A DNA stretch of 64,000 nt, from positions 4,256,001 to 4,320,000 of the forward strand of contig NZ_JAQNDL010000001.1 in the NCBI RefSeq assembly GCF_028368995.1, given 5' to 3'. The DNA is from Nannocystis bainbridge (lineage in GTDB: Bacteria > Myxococcota_A > Polyangia > Nannocystales > Nannocystaceae). This document shows, one piece after another, positions 458 through 64,000 of the stretch. Each line of letters begins with the position of its first letter. Within the stretch, counting starts at the first letter, position 1. Position numbers and translations under genes: made by a program. The notes below the pieces were generated by a model, which did no database searches, had not been told where the DNA came from, and saw nothing but the letters and a program-made list of their open reading frames with translations.

Positions 458-755
458 CCTGCCCTTCGGGGCCTATCCCTTCGGACAGGCGCCATGCGTC
501 GCCGCGAGACCGCCTGCCCTTCGGGGCATGTCCCTTCAGCCAGGTGTCATGCGCCGCGAGACCGCCGCTCCGCCTGCCCTTCGGGGCATGTCCCTTCGGA
601 CGTGTGTCATTCGTCGCCGCGAGACCGCCGTTCGGCATGTCCTTCGGGGCATGTCTATTCGGCCAGGCGTCGTGCGTCGCCGCGAGCCGTCATTCCGCCT
701 GCCCTTCGGGGCATGTCCATTCGGCCAGGCGTCATGCGTCGCCGCGAGCCCGCCG
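458..755. repeat. Five tandem ~54-63-bp intergenic repeats, each with two adjacent 14-bp dyad units
   Basis: Unit about CCTGCCCTTCGGGGCATGTCCCTTCGGCCAGGCGTCATGCGTCGCCGCGAGACCG, starting near 458, 513, 573, 636, 698. Confidence 0.85.
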
Positions 756-1033
756 TTTCAGAGAGCTCGCTCGCGTGCCGCGCGTCGACCTGTCCCTTCA
801 GCCAGGCCATGGGCTCGATCCGCGGCCTGCCTCCCTCGAGCGTCCGTCGCGGCCTGCCCCTTCGGCCAGCCTCCCGCAGCGGGCCACCGGCCTCGACCGC
901 GCGGTCGTCGAGCGAGCCGCCGCTCACGCGGTCGCCCGGCGCGCGGGCCGCGGTCCTTCGGCTCCGTCCCGGGCGACTGATTTTCTCGGGAAAACGGACC
1001 CCGGGGGGCGCGAGGCCGGGGCCTCGCAGGTGA

Positions 1034-1107
1034 TGCGCTCGGCAGGATTCGAACCTGCGACCCTCGGGTTCGAAGCCCGATGCTCTATCCAGCTGAGCTA
1101 CGAACGC
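1034..1107 (-). tRNA. tRNA-Arg, anticodon UCG; CCA end not encoded
   Basis: Reverse complement GCGTTCG TAGCTCAGCTGGATAGAGCA TCGGG CT-TCG-AA CCCGA GGGTC GCAGG TTCGAAT CCTGC CGAGCGC A folds as a cloverleaf; followed by TCA rather than CCA. Confidence 0.95.
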
Positions 1108-1237
1108 GGCCCGGCCAGGATACCCGAACTCGCCCCGGGCGAAAAGCGCACGCACAGCGCGCCGTGCATGGGCCATGCCGGCCTTTTATAATGACGGACG
1201 AACTGACCGCCGGCCTCAGGCCCTCCCAGGAGCACCC

Positions 1238-3667: not shown

Positions 3668-4066
3668 TGATGCACGCCTCTTCGTGCTGTGGACGACGGC
3701 CAGAACTGTTCGAAGCAGCTCGCTACCTCCTCGCTTCGGCGAGACCCATCGGAGGACGAAGCATGGCTGAGAGCGCCCCCGAATCGCCGCAACCCTTCGA
3801 CCTGTCCCGGAGGACATGTCATCACACGCGACCGGCACGCCGCGCGAGCGCGCAGCGATGCACGTTCACGAACAGGCATCGCTCGCATCCGCCCGCTCCG
3901 CGCGCCACGATCCGTCCGGTTGCGCGTGGCGTGAGCCAGGATCTCGGTCTCTCGGGGCGGACTCGTCCACCCGCCCAACAGCCCGCTGAAAGGCCCTGAC
4001 CGCCATTGCGCCCCCTGCGCACGGACGCGTGAACCGGCGCGCAGGCCGCGCGCGCGGGATCAATCC

Positions 4067-5006: not shown

Positions 5007-5280
5007 CGACCTGCTCTACGGACAGAGTCTCTATCGAGCGAGCGGCTGACCTTCGGGACAGCCCTCGCGCTTCGCCGACCTGTCCTCGCGGACAGCCTCA
5101 ACCGAGCGAGCGGCGGACCTTCGGGACAGCCCTCGCGTTTCGCCGACCTGTCCTCGCGGACAGCCTCTATCGAGCGAGCGGCGGACCTCCGGGACAGCCC
5201 TCGCACTTCGCCGACCTGTCCTCACGGACAGCCTCTATTGAGCGAGCGGCTGGCCTTCGGGACAGCCCTCGCGCTTCGCC
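5007..5280. repeat. Four tandem ~68-bp intergenic repeats, each with two dyad units
   Basis: Unit CGACCTGTCCTCGCGGACAGCCTCTATCGAGCGAGCGGCGGACCTTCGGGACAGCCCTCGCGCTTCGC; perfect dyads at 5081, 5149, 5217. Lies between convergent genes. Confidence 0.9.
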
Positions 5281-5299
5281 GCGGCCTCGCGGGCAGCGC

Positions 5300-7631: not shown

Positions 7632-7635
7632 CGGC

Positions 7636-8343
7636 TCACTCGTAGGTCACGCGCTCGAGGGCGTTGAGGTCGAGGACCACGATCTCCTGGCGGCTGAGGC
7701 TCAGGATCCCCTCGCGTTGCATCCGGTTGAGCGCGCGCGAGATCTCCTCGCGCACGGTCCCCAGACGCGCAGCAACGGTGTTCATGTCGAGCTGGCGGGG
7801 GATCACGCACGGCTTGCCCGCCTCGGCGCCGGCGCGCATCGCCAGCGACAGCAGGAAGGACGCGAGCCGGCGTTCGACTGACCGAAGGGACAGGTCGAGT
7901 ACGAGGTCGATCAGGCGGTTGGCCCGGAAGGCCATGTGCCGCATCAGCGCGAACGCCAGCGGCTGAGAACGCCCTATAAGGTTGATCACCGGGTCCGTCT
8001 CGAACTGCCAGGCCTCCGAGTCGAGCATGGCGAAGGCCGAGGCGGCGCACTGGACGTCCCGCGGCAAGAAACCCTCGCCGATCAGCTTCCCGGGCTCCGC
8101 GAGATAGAGGATCTGCTCGCGCCCCTCGGAGGAGATGAGGCTCAGCTTGAATTCGCCCGACTTCACCACGAACAAGCCGGGACCTGGCTCACCACGGCGG
8201 AAGACTGAGCGTTTGCGCTTCACCTCGACGAGGTTCGCGCCGAGACATAGCTCGGTCATGGTCTCTTCGGGGACCTGGTCCCAACCGGCGTAGCGCAGCA
8301 GCGCCTGGCGGACTTGTTCGACTTCCGCGCCCTCGATCGGCAT
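7636..8343 (-). CDS. Crp/Fnr family transcriptional regulator
   Basis: cNMP-binding fold (VFRRGEPGPGLFVVKSG...IGE) plus C-terminal HTH (VAARLGTVREEISRALNRM...EGIL). Confidence 0.92.
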   Translation of the reverse strand: MPIEGAEVEQVRQALLRYAGWDQVPEETMTELCLGANLVEVKRKRSVFRRGEPGPGLFVVKSGEFKLSLISSEGREQILYLAEPGKLIGEGFLPRDVQCAASAFAMLDSEAWQFETDPVINLIGRSQPLAFALMRHMAFRANRLIDLVLDLSLRSVERRLASFLLSLAMRAGAEAGKPCVIPRQLDMNTVAARLGTVREEISRALNRMQREGILSLSRQEIVVLDLNALERVTYE

Positions 8344-8540
8344 GGCGCAAGTGTAGCCGTTTTGCGCTCATGATGAGTCTCTCATTTGGTCCGGAGTGAG
8401 TTCATCCGGGGCCGTCAGCGGTTTTGCGTACCTGGCGCAACGCCTCGTGGGGCCCGAGTTCGCCGATTTTTAGGACGGCACACATGTAGGACATAAACTC
8501 GCCACCACTTACCACCCCGCGCCAGAGAACGGAGCCACCC

Positions 8541-8969: not shown

Positions 8970-9131
8970 CGCGACGGCCGGGTGGCCTCCACCCCTCGCT
9001 CGCGCCGCGTCGCTCGCGCCCCGCAAATCGTCGGCCGGCGCGAGGGGTGAACCGCGGATTGAATTATCTTTAGAACATGTCTTGAACGACAGGGCCGAAA
9101 GACCCTGCCCTCTCGGACTTCTTATTTTGAA

Positions 9132-14283: not shown

Positions 14284-15117
14284 TCACTTCTCCGCGCTGC
14301 TGTCGCGTCCGAGCTCGGAGGCGACCTTGGCGGCCTCCTGGATCGTGCGGGCGAGGACGGAGCGGATCCTGCCGTCCTCCATGGTCAGGATGCCGGCGAT
14401 CGTGCAACCGGCCGGCGTGGTGACTTGATCCTTGAGGGCGGCCGGGTGGAAGCCGGTCGACAGCACCATGCGCGCCGCGCCCTGGAACACCTGTGCCGCC
14501 ATCTGCAGCGCCACCGGGCGCGGCAGGCCCATCATCACGCCGCCGTCGGCCATCGCCTCGATCATCACGTAGACGAACGCCGGGCCGCTGGCGCCGAGGC
14601 TCGTCACCGCGTCCATCAATTTGTCCTCGACCTCGAGGCACAGGCCCACGGTGTCGAACAGCTGTTTCGCCAGGCCGACCTCGGCGTCGCCCGCTCGCTG
14701 GCCGCGCGCCAGCACCGTCATGCCCTGTCCGATGAGACATGGCGTATTGGGCATGGCCCGAATGACAGGGCTCGCCGGCAACCATCCCTGCAGCTGGGCG
14801 AGCGTGACCCCGGCGGCGATGCTGATGACCGGCTTGTCGACCAGCGCCGCCTGCACCCCGTCCTCGTGCAGCACCTTGCTGACGCGCTGGGGCTTGACCG
14901 CGAGCAGCACCGCGTCGGCCTCGCGCATCGCCTGCAGGTTGTCGGCGGCGATGCGGACGCCATGACGCTGACGGACGGCCTCGGCGGCCTCGTGCCTGCG
15001 CGTGGTCGCCACGATCTGCGTCGGCGCGAGCAGCCCCGCGCGCAGCAGGCCGGCGGCGATCGCCTCGCCCATGGTCCCGCAGCCGATGATCGCCAGAGTC
15101 CGCCCTGCCAGCAGCAT
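14284..15117 (-). CDS. proC: Pyrroline-5-carboxylate reductase
   Basis: IIGCGTMG, LAVKPQ, ISIAAGV, RAMPNTP, SGPAFVY, LKDQVTTPAGCTIAG; the start is most likely ATG 15117. Confidence 0.96.
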   Translation of the reverse strand: MLLAGRTLAIIGCGTMGEAIAAGLLRAGLLAPTQIVATTRRHEAAEAVRQRHGVRIAADNLQAMREADAVLLAVKPQRVSKVLHEDGVQAALVDKPVISIAAGVTLAQLQGWLPASPVIRAMPNTPCLIGQGMTVLARGQRAGDAEVGLAKQLFDTVGLCLEVEDKLMDAVTSLGASGPAFVYVMIEAMADGGVMMGLPRPVALQMAAQVFQGAARMVLSTGFHPAALKDQVTTPAGCTIAGILTMEDGRIRSVLARTIQEAAKVASELGRDSSAEK

Positions 15118-16535: not shown

Positions 16536-16894
16536 ATCTCCGGGCCGATCCCCGGCGCGGCAGCGCGCATGCATCGTCGACGCGCGCGCAGGTGGCTGTC
16601 TCTCGGGACAGCTTCACCACTGCTCCGAGGCAAACGCTCTCTCGCCAGGCGTCGAGAGTCACCTGTCCTTCGAGATATATTATCGTGGCGCGCCCCGTGC
16701 TCACCTGTCCTTCTGGACATGCCACGATCGACCATCGAGCGCCCTCGCTGTCCCGCGGGCTGGCCGGGCGTCCCGCCGGCGGGCCACCTGGCGCCGGGGC
16801 CATGTCCGCAAGTGCTTGAAAAGCTTCGAACGGCGCCGCGGCGCTCCGCTTGCTCAATGGGATTCATCGGCGAGAGCGCCGAACGGAGTCACCC

Positions 16895-17233: not shown

Positions 17234-17414
17234 GCCGCTCGCTCTGGCCAGCCGGGGCACGAGCACGGGCGTGACGGGCGAGGGATTCTCCGTGGCCCGC
17301 TCATCGCGACGGTCTGCACTCCACCACGATGACGCTCGTCGCGCTCGTGCTCGTGCTCCGACCGGCCGGAGCAATGTCCTTCGCGACATGTCCCGAAGAA
17401 CACTTTAAAGAAAA

Positions 17415-17680: not shown

Positions 17681-18649
17681 GTGCGCTCGCGTCTCCTCGT
17701 TCCCGTCTTCGCTGCGCTCCTCGCCGCTGCTGCGGCCGGATGCCGACCGCCCGAGATCCTCCCGCCCTACGCGACGGGGCAGGCGCCCAGGTCCGACGCC
17801 TTGCTCGGCGCGGCGGCGCCGAAGATCTCCGCCCTTCAGGTCCCGGTCGCCAAGATCCGCATCGGTCGCGCGCCGAGCGGCAACCTCATGTTCCTGGCCC
17901 AAAAGCCAGGTCGATTCTCCGGCCAGATCCAGATCGCCGGCCACGAGTTCGTGTCGCTCGCCTTCAACGAGCGCGGCTACACCCTGCGCAACGTCGCCGC
18001 CGACAACCTCCCGGCCGGCTTCTTCGCCGGGCCCCCGGCTGACTGCGCGATCCAGCGGCTGCTCGGGGTCCCGTTCGCCGCGCGCGAGCTGGTGTCGCTG
18101 GTGCTGGGCGGCGCTCCGGTGCTCGCCCCGCCGTACGAGGTCGTGGCGCAGAGCTGGGATCCACGCCACGGCCACGAGGTCTTGCGCCTGCGCGCCCCCG
18201 GCTACGAGCAAGAGCTGCGGTTCGCCTTCGTCGACGGCGTGTGGTGGTCCGCGGGCGGCACGCTGTGGCAGCGCCGCGCCGACGGCCAGCTGGCGCGCAT
18301 GTGGTCGCTCCTGCACGAGGAGCTGCGCCCCGTCGACGGCACGGTGCTGCCGCGTCGCACCCGCCTCGCCGGTCCCAGCACCCGCCGCCAGGACCTCGTC
18401 ATCATCACCTACGGCGCCCAGGCCGTCGATCCCGACCTGGGTGGCAGCGCGGCCGTGGCCGGCGACGACGAGGCCGGCTGGGAGGACGAGGACACCGCCA
18501 GTCCGCCCGGCGATGGCGACGGCGACGAAGCACCTGTCCCCGGGGACACCTCCGCGACTCCGCCATCACCGCCCAGCGATGCAGCGATCCCCCCGCAGTT
18601 CACCCTCGACGGCGCCGGTCTGGCGCCGCGCGGCGAACTCTGCCGCTAG
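17681..18649 (+). CDS. Lipoprotein (LolB/DUF4292-like, tentative)
   Basis: GTG 17681, lipobox AAAGC; beta-rich body, acidic linker. Confidence 0.65.
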   Translation: MRSRLLVPVFAALLAAAAAGCRPPEILPPYATGQAPRSDALLGAAAPKISALQVPVAKIRIGRAPSGNLMFLAQKPGRFSGQIQIAGHEFVSLAFNERGYTLRNVAADNLPAGFFAGPPADCAIQRLLGVPFAARELVSLVLGGAPVLAPPYEVVAQSWDPRHGHEVLRLRAPGYEQELRFAFVDGVWWSAGGTLWQRRADGQLARMWSLLHEELRPVDGTVLPRRTRLAGPSTRRQDLVIITYGAQAVDPDLGGSAAVAGDDEAGWEDEDTASPPGDGDGDEAPVPGDTSATPPSPPSDAAIPPQFTLDGAGLAPRGELCR

Positions 18650-18842: not shown

Positions 18843-18924
18843 CCCGATCAAGGGGTAGCCCCGCGAGCTGTCTCTCGGCGCATGCTCCGAAGGGCATGTC
18901 CTTCGGAGCATGTCCCTTCGGCCA

Positions 18925-23274: not shown

Positions 23275-23532
23275 GTCGGTGCGAGACTTGTTACACATTC
23301 GCCACGCCATCATCTGTCCTTCGGGACATCTCTTGCCAGCGATGATTCCGCGTCCTCGCAAGCGCGGATCGTCCGCTCTGCATCGAGCAGTCGCCTCACT
23401 CGCATCGGGTCTCGCAAGCCGAGCACGTTCATCGGCATCAACCCTCCGGGGGTGCGCTCACGGCAGCGGCGGTCCGCGCGCCGCCCCGTCTCCTCCTGCC
23501 GCACCGGCCTTCGCCTGCTAGGCTCCTCGCCC

Positions 23533-24576: not shown

Positions 24577-24849
24577 CTCGCCGGGAGCGCCGCACCACCT
24601 GTCCCGAAGGTCAGGCCGCGACGCTCTTACTTCGATCACCATCGGTCCGCGCACGACCTGCCCCCGAGGACAGGCTCATCGATCGCTCGGCGATGACCTG
24701 CCTTTCGCCTTACCTGTCCCCAGAGACATACACGTGGATCACCGCTCTGGGCGACGTCCACCCTGCTCCGGCGAAGTCATCAACCTCGAGGACAGGCAGA
24801 CCTCTTTGGTGCGCCTTTTTATAAGCGTCCCGAGCACAGGTCGCGCGCA

Positions 24850-35203: not shown

Positions 35204-35356
35204 GGGACATGCTCCTCGGGACATGTCGCTTTGGCCATCAATACAAGGCACCCCACGTGTCCCTCATGACATGTCCCATGCGCCAGCTTCAAAGATAACG
35301 AGGTTCCCACGCCGGACGGCCCCGGCGGCCCGGCGCCGTGCGGGGCCAGCCGCGGT

Positions 35357-37921: not shown

Positions 37922-38158
37922 GCGGGTGAGGCCGCCGACACTAGCACGGCGCAGACCTTCCTCAGCGCCCGCGGGCCACGCGCATATTTTGCGTGACTGG
38001 CGATCTAGAGGCTACTGGCGCGGCCTGGGCCGGGGAATCCGGCGGGCGCTCGAGATCGGGCACGGCCGCCCGGGAGCTGTCCCGAGAGACATCTCGCCGA
38101 GGCGGATCCGCCGTCGCCTCGACTATCGCGGCCGGGCGGGTTCGCGGTAGAGGAGAGC

Positions 38159-40263: not shown

Positions 40264-40350
40264 TCGCAGCATGTCCCTCGGGACGGTTTAATAAGGTGTC
40301 CTCGGGGACAGGTGATGCGAGGGGCCTTTACCTGTCCGAAGGGTCAGCTT

Positions 40351-48200: not shown

Positions 48201-49113
48201 CCGAGGACGCGCGCTGCAGGCAGCGGTCGATCAGCGCCGCGAACCGGCTGTCGACCGCGGGCGCGACCTCCTGCAGCGGCCGCGGAGATGTCTCTTGGGA
48301 CAGGCGGGCCAGCTCGAGCGTGCTGGTCGCCTCGAGCGGCGGATGCCCGGCGCAGAGGATGTAGAGCAGCGCGCCGAGGGCGTAGATGTCGGAGCTGCGG
48401 GTGGCCGGCTCGGCGCGCCACAGCTCGGGCGCCATGTAATACGGCGTGCCGACGATCACCTCGTCGTCGGCGTCCTCTCCCGACGCCCGGCCCGCCATCG
48501 TGCTGTCGAGCGGCGCGACGATGTCGACGCGCGGGATCCCGAACTCGGCCGTGTCGCCGATATGGTTGTCGACCCCGAGCATCACCGGCGCCGGCGTCTT
48601 GATGTCGGGCCGCCGCGCGGCCCCCTGCGGCACCAGCTTGGCCAGCCCGAAGTCGAGCAGCTTGACCTCGCCGAGCTCGTTGCGGACCACGTTGGCGAGC
48701 TTGATGTCGCGGTGCAGCACGCCCTGGCGGTGCGCCGCCGCCAGCCCGCGGGCGAGGCCGACGCCGATCGTCAGCGCCTCCTGCCACGGCAAGGCGCTCT
48801 TGATGTCCGACAGCGGCTGGCCGCGGACGTACTCGGAGATGATGTAGAGCCGCCCCTCGAGCTCGCCGATGCGGTGGATCGCCATCACGTTCGGGTGGGC
48901 GATCCGGGCCGCGGCGCGGGCCTCGGTGACGAACCGCTCGCGCGTGCGCGGATTCGCGTCGCGGGCGTTGATGAACTTGATCGCTACCGGCCGGTCCAGG
49001 ATCGTGTCGTGACCCAGGAACACGACGCCCATGCTGCCGCTGCCGAGCCCGCGGACGAGGCGGTACTCATCGAACTGTTGTGGAAGGGTCCATTCGCCGC
49101 CGGCCGACATCAT
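45274..49113 (-). CDS. Ser/Thr kinase - nSTAND1-like NTPase - TM - PEGA-like - FGE-sulfatase multidomain receptor
   Basis: LGSGSMG, VAIK, HRDIKLAN, DFG, GTPYYMAPE; NPYRGL..F, GDSGVGKSS, IDQLEE, EIAHEAL; TM helix; GNVWEW, GLRVC. Confidence 0.92.
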   Translation of the reverse strand: MMSAGGEWTLPQQFDEYRLVRGLGSGSMGVVFLGHDTILDRPVAIKFINARDANPRTRERFVTEARAAARIAHPNVMAIHRIGELEGRLYIISEYVRGQPLSDIKSALPWQEALTIGVGLARGLAAAHRQGVLHRDIKLANVVRNELGEVKLLDFGLAKLVPQGAARRPDIKTPAPVMLGVDNHIGDTAEFGIPRVDIVAPLDSTMAGRASGEDADDEVIVGTPYYMAPELWRAEPATRSSDIYALGALLYILCAGHPPLEATSTLELARLSQETSPRPLQEVAPAVDSRFAALIDRCLQRASSARFASADELCTALELLLTTGPIAEVIHGNPYRGLQAFEARHRAVFFGRVAEIRTVVDRLRVQSFVLVAGDSGVGKSSLCRAGVLPQASQPPGVGGRTWSSLAMIPGRRPLQTLVSALASHFTLKEEALRTLLMGEPEGLVRLLARRQGKDRGFVLFIDQLEELVTLSEAPQVEPFGRFLTAFASGVPSLRLLASVRGDFLTRAAALPQLGPFINPAVYLLTPLTREGMREAIVGPAALQGVHFGSEGLVDELIQAGVEGSLPLLQFALAELWEAREAGSKIITAADLERIGRVTGALARHADNVVAGLPPSQRIAVRRLLMRLVTIEDTRASLPVEDLVSGDPASEAALEALVRGRLVVAREAQDGTVHEIAHEALIRNWSALQRWINEERESREIRHRLEQAAVEWQRLGQGQVGLWTAEQLVESDKLEAASLRAREREFLAASAAELRRRRWLRGVAIATLPLVAGLAFAGVKVQEARALAGKVDDQLTRAREAFAAAHAHDQEARTSRAHALRKFDGRDVPGGEEEWARTLHRFDEADRTYKEAISASEVALGFDPAHPEAKQLIADALYERAALAEVRYRPELAEELVARVRLYDDGTRQARWSAPATLSVAVGPDAATVKLARYERDDDHRYALVEPRELGLAPVAPLELAPGSYLLELAIDGREPIFYPVLLGRGEAKQLALDIPLASSIPPGFAFVAAGAALFGSADEDTIRRKFFFAAPQHEVTTGSYAIARRETTWREWIAFLDDLPAAERALRTPGVEADKFHVGVRLEPVERGWRLVMKAGEATYAARMGEPLRYAGRDALAEQDWLDMPVSAISWDDANAYLRWLDRSGRVPGARLCSEWEWERAARGADARNFPHADSITRADANYDETYARVPEHGGPDVGGAHPASRSPFGVDDLVGNVWEWTTSSLAPNEGIIRGGAYYYDEVTCRSVNRYPWSPDTRDSTLGLRVCASVAPARPTGGS

Positions 49114-51032: not shown

Positions 51033-51116
51033 GGGCCCGATAGACATGTTTAAAGAATCATGTCTTTAAAGACATGTCTGATTCGACATGCCCTTCACAA
51101 CATGTCCCATAGACGT
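51033..51116. repeat. Array of six 14-bp dyad units in exact phase
   Basis: Units start at 51033, 51047, 51061 (TGTCTTTAAAGACA), 51075 (TGTCTGATTCGACA), 51089, 51103. Confidence 0.85.
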
Positions 51117-51443
51117 TGCGCCGTCGCATCCGCAGGTACGACCTCGCGGCTCGCCGCGTCGGACGCGTCCTGCAGCCGGTCTCCAGCGGTTGCTGTCGTG
51201 CTGACGGAGAGACGCCAGCGGACTGGGTGCCCGGCTTCATGCTGCGCTCGGCCGCCCCCAGCACGACGTCGACCGCGGGCAGCAGCACCGCTTCGACCTG
51301 CTCGATCGGCTGCTGACGCTCGGTCGCTGCGGCTCGAGCTTCGCGCCGCCAGCCGCGGAGATCGACATGGACCCTGACGCTTGCCGCCTGGCCTTCGAGG
51401 CATGTCCCTTCGGGCATGCCCCCGCATCCGCCGCGCGAGCGCG

Positions 51444-54400
51444 TCACACCGCCAGCACGACGTCGGCCGCGGGGAACAGCAGCACCGCCTCGACCTGCTT
51501 GCGCTCGAGGCCGGCCTGCTCGGCCGCGGCCGCGCGCCAGGCGGTCACCGCGTCGCGGTAGAGGCGGGCCCGCTCCTCGGCCTCGGACTGCTTCTCGATG
51601 TTGTCGAGGCAGAGGCCGTAGACGACGGCCTTTTGCACATGGCCCTCGAGACCTGTCGCATCGACCTCGTCGAGGCCGAGCTCGAGGTTGGGGTCGAGGT
51701 CGAGCACGAGCCGGGCGATCTCGCCGGTCTGGAGGGCGCCGCTGCCGTCGAGGCGGGCGAACGGGACCTGCCGCTCGACCCGCGTCGCGGACGGGTCGCG
51801 CGCGCCGCGACTCAGCGCGGCGCGCAGGTTGGGGCCCTCGAGCACGCGCAAGAACTCCTGCACCCGCGCCCGCACCCACGTCTCGTCGCGGCTCGGCGCG
51901 GCGGCCCGCACGATCGCCTCGAGGCTCGGGGTGCTCGGGTTGAACTCCTCGAACCAGGCGATCTCGGCGAACAGGGCCCGCATCGCCGCGCCCCAGTGCG
52001 ACAGCGGCGTGTCCGCCAGGTGCATGTGGTCGGCGACGGTGCGGCCCGGGTCCTGCGCGAGCACGGCGGCGCGCACCAGCGGGCCCTGCGAGGGCAAGAA
52101 GCTGAGGCTCGTCGGCTCGCTCACCGGCACCGCCGCCGGCCGCTCACCCGCTCCCGCCGGCGCCGACTCGAGGTGCGGCGCCGAGGGGTCGACGGGGCCG
52201 GGCTCGACGTAGGCGTGCGGCGCCAGCCAGCTGCGGTCGCCGTGCTCGAACAGCACGCTGTCGGGCTCGACCGGGCCCTCGTGCAGCGCGTGGATCACCA
52301 GCGCCGCGGCCTTGGCCGGCGCGCCGCGGCTGCCCTCGCTCGGCGGGTCGACGAGGATGAACAGGCCCTCGCGCGCGCGCGTGACGGCGACGTAGAGGAG
52401 GCACAGGCTCTCGTGCGCCAGCCGGTCGATGTGCTGCTCGAAGATCGGGCGCAGGTCGTCGAACTGCTGCCACATGTCCTTCGAGACATGGCGGGCGATC
52501 CGGATCACCGGGCCGGCGTCGCCGTCGCGCTCGTAGACGACCTTGAGCGTGCGCGTCGAGGCCAGCTCGGTCTCGAGCTCGGGCAGGATGACGATGTCGA
52601 ACTCGAGGCCCTTCGACTGGTGGACCGTCATCACCTGGACCGCGGAGGCGGCCGGGTCGGCGACGGGCCGCGTCTCGACCATGGCGACGAACTGGTCGCA
52701 GCGGAGGGTCCGCCGCTCGTCCCACACCTGCGCCAGCTGGATGAGCTGCATGCAGCGCCGGTACTGCCGCTCGTCGACCTGGCCGGCGATCGCCCGCACC
52801 CACTGCTGCAGGGTCGGCGCCAGGCCGTCGCTGGCGATCTGCCGCCGCACCCGCGCGGCGACGCGGCGCTGCAGGTTGCGGTCGTCCTTGTCGAAGCCGA
52901 CCACCTGTCCCAAAGGACTGGCGAACACGTTGAAGCCGGCGATCGAGTGATCGGGGTGGTCGGCGAGGCGCAGCAGGTCGAGGATCGCGTTGACCGCGGG
53001 GGCGTCGGTGAGCGGGCCGCCGCCGCGGCCGGTCGCGGGGATCTTGAGGCGGGTCGGGCCGAGCTCGTAGAGGACGCGGCCGACGGCGCCGTTGGTCCGC
53101 AGCAGCACGCCGATCGTCTTGCCGGGGTGGCGGTGGTACAGCTCGGCGACCAGCGCCGCGGCCTCCTGCAGGCGCAGCTGCTGCCGCTTGCCCTGGTCCT
53201 CGCAGCGGCCGACCGCGCGCACCTGCACGTAGCCGGGCAGCTTGCGGGTGGTGGTGTGCTGCTCGAACTCGGAGTCCCAGCGGCGCGCGGCGTACGGGTA
53301 GCGCAGCAGCGTCGGGTTGTCCTTGAGGTTGGTGAAGATCTTGTTGACGACCTCGATCACCGCCGGCGACGAGCGGTAGCTGGTGGCGAGGGTCTCCTTG
53401 TGCAGCACCTGACCACCTGGCCGATGGAGCAGGTCGTCGAGACGCGAGAGGATCTCGGGGCAGGCGTTGCGCCAGCCGTAGATCGACTGCTTGACGTCGC
53501 CGACGCAGAAGAAGCTGCGCTCGTCGGTCGAGTACGACACGGTCTCGTCGACGATCGGCCGCAGGGCGTTCCACTGCTGGATGCTGGTGTCCTGCATCTC
53601 GTCGAGCAGGACGTGGCGCAGGCGGGCGTCGATGCGGAAGCAGATCTCGTCGAGGTGGCCGGAGAGGTCGGCCTGCGCCAGCGCGACGGTGAGGTCGGCG
53701 AAGGTGATGACCTTGTGCTCGCGCTTGACCCGGCGATAACAGCTGTCGAACAGCTGCAGCAGGGTGCAGGTGGCCCGGGTCTGCTCGATGACGCGGCGGC
53801 GGAACACCCCGCGCGCGTGGCCGAGCAGGCGCCGGTAGGCGAACACGGTGCCCGGCGCGATCGGCTTGTTGTAGTAGACGAGCTCGTTCTCGGCGACCTT
53901 CTTGGCCAGACCGGTGGTGAAGAACTCCATCCAGTCGTCGGAGCTGCCGCCGCGGCACTGCTCGGCGCGCTGACAGTCCTTCTGGTGGGCCTCGATGCCG
54001 CGCTTGCCGAGGTCGGTCGGCACGGCGAAGCGCAGGGTCGCGATCGCGTCGTCGAGCTCCTGCTCGCCGAGCGTCGGCTCGGGCGCGATCGCCTCCCACG
54101 CGGAGGTGTCGTGGGCCTCGCGGTAGAGGTCGTAGAGCGAGCTGACGGTGTTGTCGATGGTGTCGGTGACGGCCCGCTCGGAGCTGCCCTCGGTCAGCGA
54201 CGCCAGCAGCTCGATGATCGCCTCGGTGTCGCCCTCCTCGAGCATGAGCCCGATCGCCTCGCGGCGCAGGCGGAAGGCCTCGTCCTCGTCGACGATCCGG
54301 GCGTCGGTCGGCAGCCCGAGCTCGAGCGAGAAGCAGCGCACGATCGTGCCGAAGAAGCTGTCGAGCGTGCGGATCTGCAGGCGGTGGAGGTTGTTGGCCA

Positions 54401-56174
54401 GGCTGGCCAGGAGGTCGAGCACGCGGGTGCGCGCGAGGTCGCGGTGGAGCCGGTGGCCGAGCTCCTCGCGCTTGGCGCCGTCGTCGGCGGCCTCGGCGAG
54501 GGTGCGCAAGATTCGGTCGCGGATCTCGCCGGCAGCGGCGCGGGTGAAGGTGCTGGCGAGGATCGAGTAGGGGAAGGCGCCCCGACTCAAGATCTGCAAG
54601 TAGCGGTTGGTGAGCTGGTAGGTCTTGCCCGAGCCGGCCGAGGCCAGGATCCGCATGTGCTCGAGCCGGTGCCCGCCGGTGAGCCGCGGGTCGGGCGGGA
54701 GGTCGAACGCGGCCTCGGCGACCCGCTCGGCCTCGGCGATCACGGCGAGGACGTCCTGCCGCGGGGCGGGCGGCATGTCCTCGGGGACATACGACCTGAC
54801 CTTGGCACCAGGTCGCTTGCGCGCGTGCGGCGGGTCGAGCACGACGGCCTCGGCGAGGGCGATCGCGTCGGCGAGGTTGTCGGCCGGGCCCGGGAGATCG
54901 GTGGCGTGCGCGAGGGCGTCGATCTCGTCCGGGACGAAGCGCCGGGTCCGTGGCGGCTCGACGGCGACCTGGCTCGCGTGCAGCTCGCCGTCCCCGGGCT
55001 CGAGCCACTCGGCGTCGGCGGGCGAGATGTCCTCTTGAACAGGCTCGGACGGGACTTGGTCGCGGCTGTCCTCGCGGACAGGTCGCTCGACGAGGGTCTC
55101 TGCGCGACGCGAGGGCTCGCCGGGGGCGTTGCGGCCCGTCGCGCCCGCGCGGTCGGCTCCTTCGCGGTCGTCCGGGCCACCGTCCGAAAGGACAGGCGAT
55201 TCGTCGCGCGCACGGTCGCTGACGGCGCGCGCGCGCCTGCTCGAAGCGACGGAGGCCTCGACTTCGGCGACGCGCGCTGGCGCTTCCCCGTCCAGGACAT
55301 GGAACGTCCTGTCCGAAGAGACATGTACCGAGCTCACGCTCTGTCTCTGCTCCTCGGCGGCGGCGTCGCTCTCGAGGACAGGCTCATCGGACAGGGCATC
55401 GTTCGCGTGGCGAGATGTCCTGACCGACGGGACAGGCGCGCCTGCCCGCGGCTCACTCGCGCCGCGCGCCATGTCCTTCGGGACAGGTCTTCCCGCCTGT
55501 GGCTCACTCGCACCGCGCGCCTCACCGCGCGCCTCACCGCTCGTCGGCGGCTCACTCGCGCTGCGAGGCTTCCTGTCCGCGAGGCCAGGTTCTCTCGTCG
55601 GCGGCTCGCTCACACCACGGGACCTCCTGTCCGTCGGGACAGGTCCGCTCGCCTGCGCCTCACTCGCGCCGCGAGGCTTCCTGTCCGCAGGGCCAGGTTC
55701 TCTCGTCGGCGGCTCGCTCGCGCTGCGAGGCTTCCTGTCCGTGGGGACAGGTCCGCCCGCCTGCGTCTCGCTCGCGCCGCCGGGCCTCCTGTTCGAAGGA
55801 GTAGAGGACGCCTCGCCCATCCGGTCGCCGGTGTCGCGGGCTCTCCTGTCCGTCGGGACAGGTCCGCCCGCTTCGGTCTCGCTCGCACCGCCGGCTTTCG
55901 AGATCGTCGGCGGCTCGCCGCGGTCGCCCTTGCGGCCGCGCCGGCGCGGCTCGGCGGCGGGCTCCGGTTGCGGGGCCGGGCGCGCGGCTGCTTCGGCGCT
56001 GCGGGCGAAGGCGCCGGCGACCGCGTTGAAAAGGTCGCGCGCGGGGCGGGCGACCTGACGCGGGGCGGTGCGGTTGCGCCTGGCCTTGCGGACAGGTGGT
56101 GGCGCCGCCGCGGCATCGGGCTCGCCGAACAGCCACAGCGACTCCGGGCGCGGCGGCTTCTCGGGGTCGCTCAC
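51444..56174 (-). CDS. addA: AddA/UvrD-type helicase subunit with long N-terminal extension and degenerate C-terminal nuclease
   Basis: ASAGSGKT, TFTRAAAGE, LDEMQDT, VGDVKQSIYGWR, SYRSS, MTVHQSKGLEF, LLYVAVTRA; GTGA overlap with the upstream stop. Confidence 0.88.
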   Translation of the reverse strand: MSDPEKPPRPESLWLFGEPDAAAAPPPVRKARRNRTAPRQVARPARDLFNAVAGAFARSAEAAARPAPQPEPAAEPRRRGRKGDRGEPPTISKAGGASETEAGGPVPTDRRARDTGDRMGEASSTPSNRRPGGASETQAGGPVPTDRKPRSASEPPTREPGPADRKPRGASEAQASGPVPTDRRSRGVSEPPTREPGLADRKPRSASEPPTSGEARGEARGASEPQAGRPVPKDMARGASEPRAGAPVPSVRTSRHANDALSDEPVLESDAAAEEQRQSVSSVHVSSDRTFHVLDGEAPARVAEVEASVASSRRARAVSDRARDESPVLSDGGPDDREGADRAGATGRNAPGEPSRRAETLVERPVREDSRDQVPSEPVQEDISPADAEWLEPGDGELHASQVAVEPPRTRRFVPDEIDALAHATDLPGPADNLADAIALAEAVVLDPPHARKRPGAKVRSYVPEDMPPAPRQDVLAVIAEAERVAEAAFDLPPDPRLTGGHRLEHMRILASAGSGKTYQLTNRYLQILSRGAFPYSILASTFTRAAAGEIRDRILRTLAEAADDGAKREELGHRLHRDLARTRVLDLLASLANNLHRLQIRTLDSFFGTIVRCFSLELGLPTDARIVDEDEAFRLRREAIGLMLEEGDTEAIIELLASLTEGSSERAVTDTIDNTVSSLYDLYREAHDTSAWEAIAPEPTLGEQELDDAIATLRFAVPTDLGKRGIEAHQKDCQRAEQCRGGSSDDWMEFFTTGLAKKVAENELVYYNKPIAPGTVFAYRRLLGHARGVFRRRVIEQTRATCTLLQLFDSCYRRVKREHKVITFADLTVALAQADLSGHLDEICFRIDARLRHVLLDEMQDTSIQQWNALRPIVDETVSYSTDERSFFCVGDVKQSIYGWRNACPEILSRLDDLLHRPGGQVLHKETLATSYRSSPAVIEVVNKIFTNLKDNPTLLRYPYAARRWDSEFEQHTTTRKLPGYVQVRAVGRCEDQGKRQQLRLQEAAALVAELYHRHPGKTIGVLLRTNGAVGRVLYELGPTRLKIPATGRGGGPLTDAPAVNAILDLLRLADHPDHSIAGFNVFASPLGQVVGFDKDDRNLQRRVAARVRRQIASDGLAPTLQQWVRAIAGQVDERQYRRCMQLIQLAQVWDERRTLRCDQFVAMVETRPVADPAASAVQVMTVHQSKGLEFDIVILPELETELASTRTLKVVYERDGDAGPVIRIARHVSKDMWQQFDDLRPIFEQHIDRLAHESLCLLYVAVTRAREGLFILVDPPSEGSRGAPAKAAALVIHALHEGPVEPDSVLFEHGDRSWLAPHAYVEPGPVDPSAPHLESAPAGAGERPAAVPVSEPTSLSFLPSQGPLVRAAVLAQDPGRTVADHMHLADTPLSHWGAAMRALFAEIAWFEEFNPSTPSLEAIVRAAAPSRDETWVRARVQEFLRVLEGPNLRAALSRGARDPSATRVERQVPFARLDGSGALQTGEIARLVLDLDPNLELGLDEVDATGLEGHVQKAVVYGLCLDNIEKQSEAEERARLYRDAVTAWRAAAAEQAGLERKQVEAVLLFPAADVVLAV
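55500..55890. repeat. 54-bp (18-aa) tandem repeats inside the AddA N-terminal extension
   Basis: Dyad-type units at 55574, 55628, 55682, 55736 (54-bp period) and 55847; peptides such as GPVPTDRKPRSASEPPTRE. Confidence 0.8.
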
Positions 56175-61394: not shown

Positions 61395-62077
61395 TGGCGG
61401 CGCGCTTCTTCAAGGGGCTGCTGACGCGGATCGGCGCGCGCCTGTCCTCGCGGACAGTTCACAAATTCAACGCGGCGCTCAACTACGTCGAGGTCGGGCG
61501 GTGGATGGCGGCCCGCGGGTTCGACACGTCGCGCCGCGCGGCCCACCGCTTCGAGATCTACGAGCAGATCGCGCGCGAGCTCGGCGAGGCGCGGGTGCTC
61601 TACCTCGAGTTCGGCGTGCACCGCGGCGAGTCGATCGCGCGCTGGTCCGAGCTGCTCCAGGGTCCAGGTTGCCGGCTGGTCGGCTTCGACAGCTTCGAGG
61701 GCCTGCCCGAGGACTGGACCGCGATCGACCGCAAGGGCACGTTCTCGACCGGGGGCGCGGCGCCGGCGTTGAGCGACCCGCGGGTGTCGTTCGTCAAGGG
61801 CTGGTTCGACGCGACGCTGCCGGCCTTCGAAGTGCCGCCGCACGAGCGGCTGGTGCTGCACTTCGACGCCGACCTCTACAGCTCGACGCGCACGGCCCTG
61901 CAGGCGTTCGAGCCGCACATGTCCGTCGGGACATATTTGATCTTCGACGAGTTCGCCGACCGCAACCACGAGCTGCGCGCGTTCGAGGAGTTCTGGGCGA
62001 CGCACCCGGAGTGGGGCTTCCGCCTGGTCGGCTGCGACTCGATCCTCGCGCGCGTGGCCTTCGAGAGGGTGCGGTAG
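61394..62077 (+). CDS. TylF/MycF-type O-methyltransferase
   Basis: YLEFGVHRG, GFDSFEGLPEDW, VKGWFDATL, HFDADLYSST, IFDE. Confidence 0.88.
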   Translation: MAARFFKGLLTRIGARLSSRTVHKFNAALNYVEVGRWMAARGFDTSRRAAHRFEIYEQIARELGEARVLYLEFGVHRGESIARWSELLQGPGCRLVGFDSFEGLPEDWTAIDRKGTFSTGGAAPALSDPRVSFVKGWFDATLPAFEVPPHERLVLHFDADLYSSTRTALQAFEPHMSVGTYLIFDEFADRNHELRAFEEFWATHPEWGFRLVGCDSILARVAFERVR

Positions 62078-62102
62078 TGGGCGAGCGAGCGAGCGGCGCG
62101 CG

Positions 62103-63317
62103 GTGAGCGAGCGGCGACAGCCGGCTCCGCGCGGGCACAGGTCGGCGTTCGCGTGGATGGCCGGGCTGTCGGTCGTGACGCTGCTGCTCGGGGCCACGCG
62201 CGAGTTCCTGATCGCCCGCGAGCTGCGGGCCAGCGGCGCGGCCGACCTGTTCTTCCGCGGCCTGGTCGCGATCTCGGCGGCCCGCATGGTCGGCCTGTCG
62301 CTGTATCGGTCGCGGTGGTTCCCCGCGCCGCGCGAGCTGCTCGGGACCGCGCTCCTGCGACAGGAGCGATGGGTCAGCCTGGCGATGGCCGCGGCCGGCG
62401 TGGCCGCGCTGCTGGCGATCGTCGGGCCGCACGCGTGGGCCGACCCCACCGTGTGGGTGTTCGCGGTCGGCGTGGGCCTCGCGGTCCACGGCTCGGCGCT
62501 GCGCGCCCTGGCCGAGCGGGCCGGACGGGAGCGCCGCGGGTTCGCGCTCGAGTGGGGCATCCCGCTCGGGACCATCGCCGGGGCGACGCTGCTGCCGGGC
62601 GGGGCGCTGGGACCTTCGCTCGGGCTGGTCGCGGGGCTGGCGGTCGGCGTCGCGGGGGTGTGGCCTGCTGCGCGCTGTCCCGGAGGACATGACACAAAGG
62701 ACATGCCCCATGAGACACCCGGGCGGACGCGGGCGCTGCTGATCGACGCCCTGGTGTACGCCAACCTCGGGCTGCTCGACGCGGCGCTGTCGCACCTGTT
62801 CGTGGTCGGCGGGTTCGCGCGGCTGAACTACGCCTACCTGTTCGTCAACGCCGCGATCATGGTGCCGTCGGCCGCGGCGACGGTGGTGGCGTTGCGGGCC
62901 TCGGCCGGCGACCCGGCACGCGCCCACGCGGCGCTGCGGCGCTGGGCGGTGCTCGGCGGGTTCACCGGCGCAGGGGCGGTCGCGGCGGTGGGGCTGCTGT
63001 TCACGTGGCAGCCGGCGGCGACGGTGGTCGATCGGGCGATCGGCTGGGACGTGGCGGCACAGACGGGCTTGCTGATCCTGTGGAGCGCGCCGTTCGCCGG
63101 GCTGCGCCTCGCCAACACGATCGGCAGGCAGTCACAGGTCGCCGCCGACCCGCGCGGGCTGCTGGCGTGGGACCTCGGCGGGATCGCCGGTCGCGCGCTC
63201 ATCCTCGGGTTCGGCGCGAGCCTCGTGGGGCTGGTCGCGTCGCCGATCGGGCTGGCCTTCGCCGAAGCGGTGCAGCTCGGCGCGTGGTGGCACGGGCCGC
63301 GACGCAAGGGCGAGTGA
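62103..63317 (+). CDS. MurJ/Wzx-like flippase (divergent)
   Basis: LLGATREFLIA...AADLFF (MurJ-type start), ARLNYA; multiple TM helices. Confidence 0.65.
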   Translation: MSERRQPAPRGHRSAFAWMAGLSVVTLLLGATREFLIARELRASGAADLFFRGLVAISAARMVGLSLYRSRWFPAPRELLGTALLRQERWVSLAMAAAGVAALLAIVGPHAWADPTVWVFAVGVGLAVHGSALRALAERAGRERRGFALEWGIPLGTIAGATLLPGGALGPSLGLVAGLAVGVAGVWPAARCPGGHDTKDMPHETPGRTRALLIDALVYANLGLLDAALSHLFVVGGFARLNYAYLFVNAAIMVPSAAATVVALRASAGDPARAHAALRRWAVLGGFTGAGAVAAVGLLFTWQPAATVVDRAIGWDVAAQTGLLILWSAPFAGLRLANTIGRQSQVAADPRGLLAWDLGGIAGRALILGFGASLVGLVASPIGLAFAEAVQLGAWWHGPRRKGE

Positions 63318-63411
63318 CTCTCACGGCGACGTACGTCGCGCGGCTGACGGTGCGTGGCGCCGCAGCGTCTGCCAGCGCGACGCCCGGGCCCACCACGAAG
63401 CGCCGAGGTTT

Positions 63412-64000
63412 CTAGCGGGCCACCGCGTAGACCTCGAAGCCGGTGCCGAGGCCGGCGCGGTCGACCAGGCGGGCGACCGGTTCGGCGGCGAGAGCGAGGC
63501 CCGCCGACACCGCGCGGGCGGGCAGCGAGCTGCCGAGGGCGAAGCGCTGGAAGCCGCGGCTGAGGGCCGCGCGGTCGAGGCCGGAGAAGCTGGTCCAGCG
63601 GACCGGGTCGAAATCGGCGGCGCCGAGCAGGGTCTGCAGGCCGCGGCGGCTGAACAGCGACAGGTGGTCGGGCGGGATCACCATCGGGAAGCGGGGCCCG
63701 AGCGCGCGCGCCGGCAGGCCCGAGCTCGACGGGGTCGAGAGCGCCAAAAAGCCGCCAGGACGCAGCCACTTGCGGGCCTGCAGCAAGATGTCCTTGGGGA
63801 CAGCCACGTGCTCGACGACCTCCCACAGCGCCACCGCGTCGAAGCGCGGCGCCGGCGGGCCGAAGTCGGAGAACCACAGCTCGTGCACGACGTGACCGCG
63901 GCGGCGCGGGCCCTCGGCCGTGCGAGCGCGGTCGACGCCCTCGACCTGCATGCCGAGGTCGCGGCAGGCGTCGAGGAAATGACCCGGGCCGCAGCCGACC
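63412..64000 (-). CDS. Class I SAM methyltransferase (5' truncated by window edge)
   Basis: VGCGPGHFL at the window edge; FDAVALWEVVEHV, LRPGG..ALSTP, PPDHL. Confidence 0.85.
   Translation of the reverse strand, partial: VGCGPGHFLDACRDLGMQVEGVDRARTAEGPRRRGHVVHELWFSDFGPPAPRFDAVALWEVVEHVAVPKDILLQARKWLRPGGFLALSTPSSSGLPARALGPRFPMVIPPDHLSLFSRRGLQTLLGAADFDPVRWTSFSGLDRAALSRGFQRFALGSSLPARAVSAGLALAAEPVARLVDRAGLGTGFEVYAVAR

Follow-up and report, generated by a model that had tools for sequence, protein, structure and literature searches.

Chi, KOPS, the DNA uptake sequences (DUS) of Neisseriaceae and uptake signal sequences (USS) of Pasteurellaceae, HIP1, and the repetitive extragenic palindromic (REP) elements have each opened a part of chromosome biology. 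HIP1 is a contiguous palindromic 8-mer (GCGATCGC) of cyanobacteria that, to our knowledge, has gone unexplained for decades. Words of the DUS and USS type are asymmetric and have no variable spacer; for them, a bias in DNA uptake has been demonstrated. REP elements are extragenic and are mobilized by a Y1 transposase (RAYT) in gamma-proteobacteria. The dRS3 repeats of Neisseria are intergenic and serve as an integration site for a phage recombinase, and the met-boxes of MetJ and the heptads of omega make up a handful of ribbon-helix-helix operator arrays per genome, located at promoters. Here, we analyze a 64,000-nucleotide stretch of the Nannocystis bainbridge genome (the window; positions 4256001-4320000 of contig C1 in assembly G000, which comprises 11.05 Mb in 5 contigs at 71.5% G+C) and an interrupted palindrome, TGTC-N6-GACA (the dyad), that recurs throughout it. 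We find that the dyad is a real, strong, genus-wide feature that belongs among the genome-wide iterated motifs. A full-text literature search, judged by titles and the beginnings of abstracts, returned no description of the dyad or of Nannocystis repeat families.

An earlier interpretation of the window from its letters alone (the sequence-only reading) listed 34 perfect dyads by their start coordinates, and all 34 are present. Among 100 dinucleotide-preserving shuffles of the window, the expectation is 0.74 dyads and the maximum is 3. When the spacer length of TGTC-Nk-GACA is varied, the window contains 34 copies at k=6 and 0 to 3 at every other k within 0-20; genome-wide, there are 3663 copies at k=6 (one perfect dyad per 3 kb) versus 29 to 175 at all other k in 0-19. 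The same holds for 5-base arms, with 1987 copies of TGTCC-N4-GGACA and 0 to 16 copies at each of the other spacings from N0 to N12. The fixed spacer length claimed by the sequence-only reading is thus borne out in the window and the genome, and the excess amounts to about 40-fold relative to neighboring spacings genome-wide and about 13-fold in genes. For the latter figure, genes were called heuristically as long open reading frames (ORFs) with a G+C content above 0.8 at codon position 3 (GC3) and higher at position 1 than at position 2 (GC1 > GC2), in place of a real annotation; such calls are adequate for bulk statistics and unreliable for single genes. The resulting 7826 crude coding sequences (9.19 Mb) contain 1479 dyads at k=6, whereas five synonymous-codon shuffles contain 105 to 119. 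Under this null, observed counts at k=3, 4, 7, and 8 lie within or near the shuffled range, and those at k=5 and k=9 are about twice and about half of the null, respectively. A codon-aware count had been named beforehand as the test that could refute the sequence-only reading, and the reading withstands it because the excess over the codon-aware null sits at k=6.

The proportion of dyads inside genes, previously put at about half, is roughly right: 19 of the 34 in the window lie in crude ORFs, 7 of these in a stretch of weak coding signal, and the genome-wide figure is 1477 of 3663 (40%). Within ORFs, dyads favor the reading frames that fit common codons (727 as xxT GTC Cnn nnG GAC Axx, 609 as xTG TCC nnn nGG ACA, and 143 as TGT CCn nnn GGA CAx). 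Their positions cover the length of genes, somewhat more often toward the 5' end, and their peptide contexts are diverse. Longer arms, 14-bp arrays, clustering at gene 3' ends, and constraint on the core at synonymous sites are additions to the earlier description.

Alignment of the 3663 sites produced the consensus (A/G)C(A/C)-TGTC-C-ynnr-G-GACA-(T/G)G(T/C), i.e., ACATGTCC-N4-GGACATGT, a full site of about 20 bp. Beyond ±3 bases, the information drops to at most 0.2 bit, with only a faint echo of 14-bp period. Single substitutions are tolerated in a mirror-symmetric fashion: G1 and C12 are almost invariant (1 to 25 variant sites versus 1987 perfect ones), and positions 2/11 and 4/9 of the dyad tolerate substitution. 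Every single-substitution variant is specific to N4 relative to the N3 and N5 controls, and perfect and one-off sites together number about 6900.

In the autocorrelation of CATG, pairs are concentrated at 14 bp (3736), 28 bp (2073), 42 bp (1586), 56 bp (751), and 70 bp (383), over a background of about 80 to 300 pairs. We defined lattice arrays as CATGs chained at 14- or 28-bp steps, which gave 2074 chains, 954 of them with at least three CATGs, and arrays that span 2 to 20 units. The lattice unit is w-r-GGACATGTCC-y-w, and the TGTC-N6-GACA dyad is the inward-facing junction between two such units. Since the outer ACATGT (6 bp) is itself palindromic, 20-bp sites can overlap by 6 bp and so tile in a 14-bp register. 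The primary element is the inward dyad, which occurs 1987 times versus 956 for the contiguous decamer of equal base content; inside ORFs, the inward arrangement is found 1477 times, the outward 258 times, and the direct arrangements 456 and 491 times. Since the units of one array have diverged from each other with their register preserved, the arrays did not come from recent duplication. Some dyads, a minority, lie at the core of longer tandem repeats (54 to 78 bp), and the earlier observation that some copies stem from tandem repeats is correct for a 68-bp repeat (5029-5281) and a 54/108-bp repeat (55537-55894), both of which hold dyads.

This anatomy sets the dyad apart from its closest counterparts. 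HIP1 shares with it the nature of a short, lineage-bound palindrome that is over-represented tens-fold in genes and between them, conserved beyond neutral expectation, and unaccompanied by a transposase. However, HIP1 is a contiguous 8-mer, whereas the dyad is interrupted (5-N4-5, extended 8-N4-8) with a free spacer, tiles in 14-bp arrays behind stop codons, and is hosted by the phylum Myxococcota. Like the dyad, dRS3 is an interrupted palindrome with a spacer of fixed length and variable sequence, and it punctuates longer arrays of intergenic repeats, the neisserial intergenic mosaic elements (NIME), an arrangement comparable to the 54- to 78-bp repeats with one dyad per unit; unlike dRS3, the dyad is common inside genes, and we saw no phage-recombinase element here. 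The arrays of MetJ and omega sites also consist of abutting short units in strict register, direct or inverted, on which neighboring dimers are thought to touch, but the dyad forms about 950 arrays of at least three units, and these lie behind genes. In the size of its excess and in its build-up within genes, the dyad resembles uptake sequences and HIP1 more closely than any regulon.

We next consider whether the dyad is read as DNA or folds as a nucleic acid hairpin. The spacer is variable and not self-complementary, as had been claimed, with Watson-Crick pairs at the center in 0.27 to 0.33 of sites, which is the expectation under independence. At the variable mirror positions, observed and independent pairing frequencies are 0.591/0.571, 0.330/0.333, and 0.409/0.392, and in 3032 non-coding CATG-anchored pairs they are 0.496/0.443, 0.633/0.590, and 0.581/0.565, with mutual information of at most 0.02 bit. 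Compensatory covariation between mirror positions was not found in either set. When 1046 dyads in tandem 3' regions were oriented by transcription, neither a downstream T-tract nor a G-U strand asymmetry was seen; composition is mirror-symmetric, and UUCG (30) and CGAA (36) loops are about equally frequent. Some spacer words in these oriented dyads are skewed about 2:1 relative to transcription, without a consistent loop preference. Where both arms match the consensus, a perfect hairpin or cruciform of 8 to 10 bp is automatically possible. The array at 51025-51125, folded as RNA, reaches -28.8 kcal/mol (z = -2.85). Median energies of the best 44-nt window are -25.4 kcal/mol in convergent gaps with arrays, -24.2 in array-free ones, and -22.1 in divergent gaps; these energies overlap and, at such a high G+C content, say little about folding. 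A terminator consensus scan of 40000-56000 found 2 sites versus 3.4 expected, one of them at 51059-51076, and thus no enrichment. We rejected an intrinsic (Rho-independent) terminator on the absence of a U-tract after the 1046 oriented dyads and of enrichment in the scan, and a structured RNA family on the absence of an Rfam model at dyads and of compensatory base changes. The Rfam scan of the window matched no family except tRNA, its sole match being a tRNA gene at 1034-1107 (minus strand, 73 bits). The rigid N4, the lack of covariation, the mirror-symmetric tolerance, and the lack of a strand signature argue for a symmetric protein that would read double-stranded DNA, and in this respect our results agree with the sequence-only reading, which had preferred a dimeric-protein site over a hairpin.

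The dyad is unevenly distributed among classes of genomic DNA. Its density per kb is 2.6 in convergent gaps, 1.0 in tandem gaps, 0.37 in divergent gaps, and 0.16 in ORFs. Arrays of at least three units are distributed likewise (371 in 346 kb of convergent, 255 in 1009 kb of tandem, and 25 in 514 kb of divergent gaps), so that their density in convergent gaps is about 22 times that in divergent ones, and 377 of the 937 convergent gaps of 60 to 400 bp hold at least three lattice units. The median distance from an array is 24 bp to a facing stop codon and 209 bp to a facing start. Within the 255 tandem gaps, the corresponding medians are 25 bp to the stop and 209 bp to the next start, with the upstream stop being the nearer in 215 of 255. 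The order convergent, tandem, divergent, coding can be read as one of decreasing tolerance, so that a function at 3' ends is not required. On the scale of the chromosome, in contrast to a role in occlusion or macrodomain organization of the Noc, SlmA, or MatP type, which the sequence-only reading had entertained, the distribution is even: none of the 219 50-kb bins is empty of dyads, and density is ordinary at both turning points of GC skew (92 to 105 dyads per 250 kb near C1 4.43 Mb and C3 1.47 Mb; genome range, 33 to 130). Cumulative GC skew has its minimum and maximum at C1 ~4,433,507 (115-180 kb beyond the window) and C3 ~1,471,158. These extremes are possibly the replication origin and terminus, in which case the origin would be near the window.

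How intragenic dyads came into being can be traced in alignments. Orthologues of one window gene are 89 to 90% identical at the protein level in N. punicea, N. pusilla, N. exedens, and Nannocystis sp. and 84% identical in N. radixulma. The dyad at 43168 reads (A/C)TG TCC CG(A/C) AAG ACA in Nannocystis versus TAC TCG CGC AAG ACC in distant orthologues. At least four substitutions toward the motif separate the two; among their effects are the replacement of Tyr by Met/Leu and the appearance of ACA, a codon whose final A is unusual where GC3 is about 0.9 or more. All six intragenic dyads examined align to outgroup codons, and none sits on an inserted 14-mer, although a single-codon gap lies beside one of them in one outgroup. 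Of the five besides 43168, three are confined to Nannocystis and lie several substitutions from the outgroups, and two are common to some sister-genus genomes. As judged from these alignments, the intragenic dyads arose in place by substitutions.

Conservation was measured in one 460-kb region against two congeners that are 90% identical to G000. For 49 intragenic dyads, identity to the two congeners is 0.962 and 0.964 in the core, 0.854 and 0.850 in the spacer, and 0.81 and 0.83 in the flanks. Codon positions 1, 2, and 3 average 0.93, 0.95, and 0.85 identity. Core bases at codon position 3 are identical in 0.937 and 0.965 of cases, whereas all third positions are identical in 0.848 and 0.853; the 9 and 5 core mismatches at this position compare with about 21 expected (P ~0.002 and ~0.0001, normal approximation). 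The perfect dyad is retained at 41 and 38 of the 49 sites. Aligned non-coding dyads show the same difference at lower identity (core, 0.856 and 0.883; spacer, 0.556 and 0.656), and 92 to 97 of the 176 dyads in the region lie in DNA that does not align. Turnover occurs in both directions: of the intragenic sites aligned across the three species, 34 have a perfect dyad in every species, 16 in two of them, and 12 in a single one, and spacers are almost wholly replaced between species, even inside ORFs. Orthologous convergent gaps contain arrays in all three species in 14 cases, in none in 19, and in a mixture in 13, with unit numbers that vary across the species (e.g., 5/12/7 and 5/10/4). By this measure, the core is under evolutionary constraint at synonymous sites while the spacer drifts.

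To place the dyad in its family, TGTCC-N4-GGACA was counted in 51 Nannocystaceae genomes at least 85% complete, where g2, g4, and g22 denote genera:

Large Nannocystis genomes: 1550-2090 copies
6.6-Mb Nannocystis metagenome-assembled genome (MAG): 333 copies
Sister genus g2 (4/4 genomes): 87-169 copies
Sister genus g4 (3/3 genomes): 67-161 copies
Genus g22: 6-20 copies
All remaining genera: 0-11 copies
Reversed-pattern control, all genomes: 0-10 copies

The lineage specificity proposed by the sequence-only reading is therefore upheld by the survey of relatives: the motif is massively present in Nannocystis, present at about 70 to 170 copies in two sister genera, and at background (0 to 20 copies) in the other 11 genera, represented by 38 genomes of 4.3 to 15 Mb. 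Three-unit lattices are more restricted, with 1005 to 1670 per genome in Nannocystis, 0 to 8 in g2 and g4, and 0 to 4 elsewhere, apart from one genome with 17. Cores in g4 mostly lack CATG flanks (2 of 161 are flanked in genome G013). In g2 and g4, the spacers of the lattice arrays are A+T-rich, and of 16 arrays examined, 9 occupy divergent gaps or immediately precede a gene start, with adjoining genes that encode secreted or surface proteins, including IgGFc_binding (three times), FG-GAP (twice), DUF4215, and VWA domains and peptidases. Genome G011 has three perfect 20-mers, all single sites in A+T-rich intergenic DNA; two are at or just upstream of ORFs with DUF4215 and CAP domains, and the third is about 520 bp upstream of a beta-lactamase gene. 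Because the sister-genus arrays are few, A+T-rich, and near gene starts, these small samples of related, non-independent genomes suggest an ancestral operator-like use followed by an expansion in Nannocystis. All five g22 genomes share one conserved locus with a three-CATG lattice and A+T-rich filling (CATGTCAATATATACATGACATTGAGTTCATG and variants; G031:C6:39318, G032:C14:236297, G033:C42:8435, G034:C10:33326, and G035:C31:436550), and this locus is perhaps a single-copy operator akin to the Nannocystis lattice unit.

Based on these observations, we lean toward the view that the dyad is probably a double-stranded DNA recognition site of a symmetric sequence-specific protein, made by substitution and kept by a directional force; we infer the protein reader, the symmetric dimer, and the maintaining force. 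In the simplest case, a homodimer would read the arms TGnCC and GGnCA held exactly 4 bp apart. Sites would arise in place through point substitutions, not by insertion, and a directional genome-wide force would hold them, either selection for binding or a drive through biased conversion or uptake. Accumulation would follow tolerance: sparse in genes, in fitting frames and less conserved parts of proteins, denser in promoter-free DNA, and culminating in saturating phased arrays that follow stop codons directly or lie between convergent genes. The system would be old in the clade, with about 100 sites and a few operator-like arrays at gene starts in the sister genera, and would have undergone a 10- to 20-fold expansion in Nannocystis.

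Several points weigh against this recognition-site reading. The case for a protein reader is built wholly from sequence statistics, and the conservation test from one 460-kb region and two close congeners. The data fit selection for a nucleoid or boundary protein and drive through uptake or biased conversion alike. Arrays lie nearer to stop codons than promoter avoidance requires, which hints at a function at transcript 3' ends. The 3032 non-coding pairs show a small excess of pairing across the spacer (2 to 5 percentage points), and a structural role in single-stranded DNA or RNA is possible. Finally, 701 of the 1261 testable ORF dyads (56%) lie in strong local coding context versus 79% of random coding positions, and part of the apparently intragenic dyads, such as the seven at 54776-55860, may be non-coding or lie in disordered sequence.

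Among the rival explanations, one is a special case of the reading just described, in which the dyad is a DNA uptake or "self" signal: a transformation receptor would prefer DNA that carries the dyad, and recombination would drive the motif up. The likeness to DUS and USS is extensive, as these too number thousands of copies, shape codons and residues in genes, are evenly spread, form genus dialects, and are enriched behind genes, and a directional force can maintain both. In the dyad, the counterparts are an excess of similar size (about 13-fold in genes and 40-fold over neighboring spacings), genic sites built by substitution in less conserved parts (flank identity, 0.81 to 0.83) even at the price of amino acid changes, the absence of any empty 50-kb bin, cores that mostly lack CATG flanks in G013, and a pile-up behind genes reminiscent of inverted DUS/USS pairs. 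ComEC and DprA are present, but both are near-universal, matching 10 to 11 of 14 control genomes. Uptake sequences described so far are asymmetric words, and phased arrays of them are not known; operator-like sister-genus arrays at gene starts are not predicted; and in the literature that we met, seen as titles and opening lines of abstracts, there was no record of natural transformation in Nannocystis. We consider the uptake explanation unlikely. Slightly less probable still, in our judgment, is a structured element of the kind of REP and bacterial interspersed mosaic elements (BIME), in which the paired arms would act as bidirectional terminators, mRNA 3' stabilizers, or gyrase or topology sites and would spread through a mobilizing enzyme or slippage. 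Short, lineage-specific palindromic clusters of variable size at gene 3' ends and between convergent genes are common to REP/BIME and the dyad, and this view would account for the 22-fold contrast between convergent and divergent gaps, the median of 24 bp to the facing stop, the at least three units in 377 of 937 convergent gaps, the persistence of arrays at orthologous gaps with variable unit number, the folding energy at 51025-51125, and an expansion to six dyads in N. punicea where the window has one. However, hairpins do not need a loop fixed at 4, the folding energies of gaps with arrays are not distinct from those of array-free or divergent gaps, and the covariation, U-tract, and G-U asymmetry that paired arms would leave were not found. 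Unlike REP elements, the dyad is not strictly extragenic, with 40% of copies in ORFs and those examined derived by substitution, and the Y1 (RAYT) transposase (PF01797) had no match in G000 or in four congeners (all about 90% complete), while the controls matched in 6 of 14 genomes. We rejected REP/BIME proper on the last two grounds, and a miniature inverted-repeat transposable element (MITE) on the lack of conserved ends beyond ±3 bases, the arrays of 2 to 20 units, and the absence of an inserted 14-mer under any of six intragenic copies. Remnants of such families, which the sequence-only reading had named as a possible undoing of its claim, do not explain the dyad.

A further explanation, which we regard as quite improbable, is that the dyad is an ordinary transcription-factor operator of a small regulon and that the extra copies in Nannocystis are neutral by-products, for example of repeat slippage. 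Dimeric operators share its fixed geometry and mirror-symmetric base preferences, and in the sister genera the few arrays (0 to 8 per genome) are A+T-rich, 9 of 16 of them in divergent gaps or at gene starts, and adjoin genes for secreted or surface proteins, and the G011 20-mers resemble these arrays. In G000 itself, arrays with A+T-rich spacers are relatively more common in divergent gaps (12 of 95) than those with G+C-rich spacers (10 of 614). A promoter-proximal, regulon-sized pattern is nevertheless seen only in the small sister-genus samples, and an operator of the CRP/FNR or another dimeric type was rejected for Nannocystis on location and number, with 3663 copies and the lowest intergenic density in divergent gaps. 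Neutral copies would lack conservation at synonymous sites and preferential retention of core over spacer and would not arise by several concordant substitutions within genes, and tandem repeats hold only a minority of copies. Last, we give next to no credence to the idea that the dyad is no real feature and simply follows from base composition, codon usage, or a handful of repeated genes. The frame xxT GTC Cnn nnG GAC Axx does use common codons, raising the expectation at k=6 to about 110 versus 12 to 94 at other spacings, but 1479 copies stand against the codon-aware 105 to 119 and 34 against the dinucleotide expectation of 0.74, the 11 other genera of the family (38 genomes) hold 0 to 20 copies, and peptide contexts are diverse. 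A compositional artifact is refuted by the nulls, the spacing specificity, and the family survey.

If a protein reads the dyad, as we favor, a family of standalone Fis-type helix-turn-helix (HTH) proteins offers a lead as the candidate binder. An 89-residue member is encoded 330 bp from an array in a g4 genome (G045 L086:2864-3133). Members of this HTH_8 family are about 80 to 100 residues long, some in longer frames, and are found in G000 at C5:53559-53804 and 10 further places; NCBIfam and the PDB yield only weak Fis/NtrC matches. Copy number parallels dyad abundance across genera: large Nannocystis genomes have 10 to 14 copies, the small MAG has 6, g2 and g4 have 5 to 7, and the other 11 genera have 1 to 3 (usually 1), although as few as one or two events among related lineages may lie behind this expansion. 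The family has a nearly invariant recognition helix, LLGITRHALKRRI(I/V)K, which is the same in a genus without the motif, and none of the 11 G000 copies has a dyad within the upstream 300 bp. A search for an autoregulated binder through CATG-flanked dyads no more than 200 bp from gene starts was abandoned, as its 191 gene-site pairs are too many to discriminate. Taken to its most specific form, the candidate system would consist of a protein, perhaps of the Fis type, that polymerizes in 14-bp register behind about 40% of convergent gene pairs and also occupies single genic dyads, marking transcription-unit boundaries as a roadblock terminator or topological insulator; alternatively, it would be the first dyad-symmetric uptake signal and the first uptake signal in Myxococcota. 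We put forward this specific proposal as a speculative one that is doubtful as it stands.

The sites in the window, in the order of their positions, are as follows.

440..757, 62-bp tandem repeat with near-dyads GCATGTCC-N4-GGMCAGG, including a lattice pair at 631-658
3803..3816, dyad TGTCCCGGAGGACA with TGTC directly after it, outside crude ORFs
5029..5281, 68-bp tandem repeat, 3.7 copies, with CCTGTCC-N4-GGACAGC in each unit (dyads 5081, 5149, and 5217)
8336..8377, weak 2-CATG chain with 28-bp spacing, possibly a chance occurrence
9078..9091, dyad in the convergent gap before an S41 peptidase gene (9132-10304, minus strand)
14726..14760, dyad 14726 and a 2-unit CATG lattice (14733-14760), intergenic
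16597..16719, dyads 16597 and 16706 in the gap beyond the stop of ORF 15903-16535
17375..17388, dyad with a second near-unit abutting, intergenic (17234-17569)
18535..18548, dyad near the 3' end of ORF 17570-18649 (plus strand, no Pfam match)
18876..18917, 3-unit CATG lattice in the gap between ORFs 17570-18649 (plus strand) and 18925-20115 (minus strand)
23315..23328, dyad 124 bp upstream of a radical-SAM gene (23452-24576, plus strand)
24715..24728, dyad in convergent gap 24577-24849
33324..33337, dyad CTG TCC GAA GGG ACA in ORF 32517-34304 (minus strand)
34227..34240, dyad in ORF 32517-34304 (minus strand), with a perfect dyad at the aligned codons of sister-genus genome G013
35203..35271, 2-unit lattice (35203-35230) and dyad 35258
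36198..36225, 2-unit lattice in ORF 35357-37921 (minus strand)
38078..38091, dyad in an FGE-sulfatase-domain gene (37993-40263, plus strand)
38732..38745, dyad in the same FGE-sulfatase-domain gene, missing from two outgroup orthologues
39911..39952, 3-unit lattice in the same FGE-sulfatase-domain gene
40297..40310, dyad 34 bp past the stop of gene 37993-40263
43168..43181, dyad in an S9 peptidase gene (42013-44046, minus strand), kept in 6/6 aligned Nannocystis sequences
48289..48302, dyad in a kinase-STAND-FGE gene (45274-49113, minus strand), between the kinase and nSTAND1 domains
51040..51109, 5-unit 14-bp lattice with A+T-rich spacers in convergent gap 50975-51443, with abutting dyads 51061 and 51075
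51396..51423, 2-unit lattice in convergent gap 50975-51443
52468..52495, dyad 52475 with CATG flanks (CAT GTC TCG AAG GAC ATG) in the UvrD_C region of an AddA-like gene
54776..55860, dyads 54776, 55067, 55310, 55472, 55628, 55736, and 55847 in the 5' 1.4 kb of ORF 51444-56174
61443..61456, dyad in a TylF-like methyltransferase gene (60752-62077, plus strand)
61920..61933, dyad ATG TCC GTC GGG ACA in the TylF domain; the sole outgroup orthologue has CTT CTC CCG GGA AGC
62676..62710, dyad 62676 and a 2-unit lattice (62683-62710) in overlapping crude ORFs
63789..63802, dyad in ORF 63412-66132 (minus strand), which starts beyond the window

Comparison with other genomes adds to several of these entries. 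The 68-bp repeat at 5029-5281 occupies convergent gap 4941-5299, and the orthologous gaps of two species hold 5 and 3 dyads. The dyad at 33324 is missing from five outgroup orthologues, with no indel relative to four of them, whereas a perfect dyad equivalent to that at 52475 is also found in three g2 genomes. Of two minus-strand genes, 34301-35251 has the sites of 35203-35271 at its start or a little before it, and 35357-37921 has them on its downstream side. At 39911-39952, a near-dyad with a GGCCA arm is kept in five species and is perfect in a sixth. At the 40297 locus, a tandem repeat with a period of about 78 bp carries 6 dyads in N. punicea, while four other species have one dyad or near-dyad. 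In this repeat (L001 alignment columns 7494-7886), units of the form CCTGTCC...GGACAAGG alternate with units of the form CATGTCC...GGACATGC; judging by the alignment, it is a local expansion inserted at window position ~40300. Tandem repeats that contain no dyad are also present, with periods of 72 bp (95% matches) at 13751-13944 and 91 bp (89% matches) at 18590-18844. The product of gene 45274-49113 joins a Ser/Thr kinase, an nSTAND1 NTPase, and an FGE-sulfatase domain in one protein; a second FGE-sulfatase-domain protein is encoded not far away, at 37993-40263, and ADYC-domain and DUF7790 proteins are encoded in the vicinity.

The AddA-like ORF at 51444-56174 deserves separate mention. Its 5' stretch contains 54/108-bp tandem repeats, with dyads 55628-55847 inside the repeat at 55537-55894, and is absent from outgroup AddA genes. 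The ORF is 1576 amino acids long, compared with 1056 to 1177 for outgroup AddA frames. On the minus strand, 54700-56174 has a weak coding signal (GC2, 0.65 to 0.77; GC3, 0.73 to 0.85), and the repeats would encode GPVPTDR-like units. The true start may lie further downstream, or the stretch may be a disordered, genus-specific extension.

The dyad provides a simple, testable recognition code, TGnCC-N4-GGnCA, in thousands of copies and with constraint that is measurable at synonymous sites. Its graded abundance in relatives (about 5, 100, and 2000 copies) should make it possible to track down the responsible protein by comparing these genomes. At about 1500 positions in genes, the motif biases which codons and amino acids are used, and it inflates ORF predictions where repeats abound, as at the 5' end of the AddA-like ORF. 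Nannocystis is a cultivable, non-pathogenic genus in which an iterated motif can be studied, and the phased arrays at gene ends suggest a protein-based marking of transcription-unit ends in a high-GC genome.

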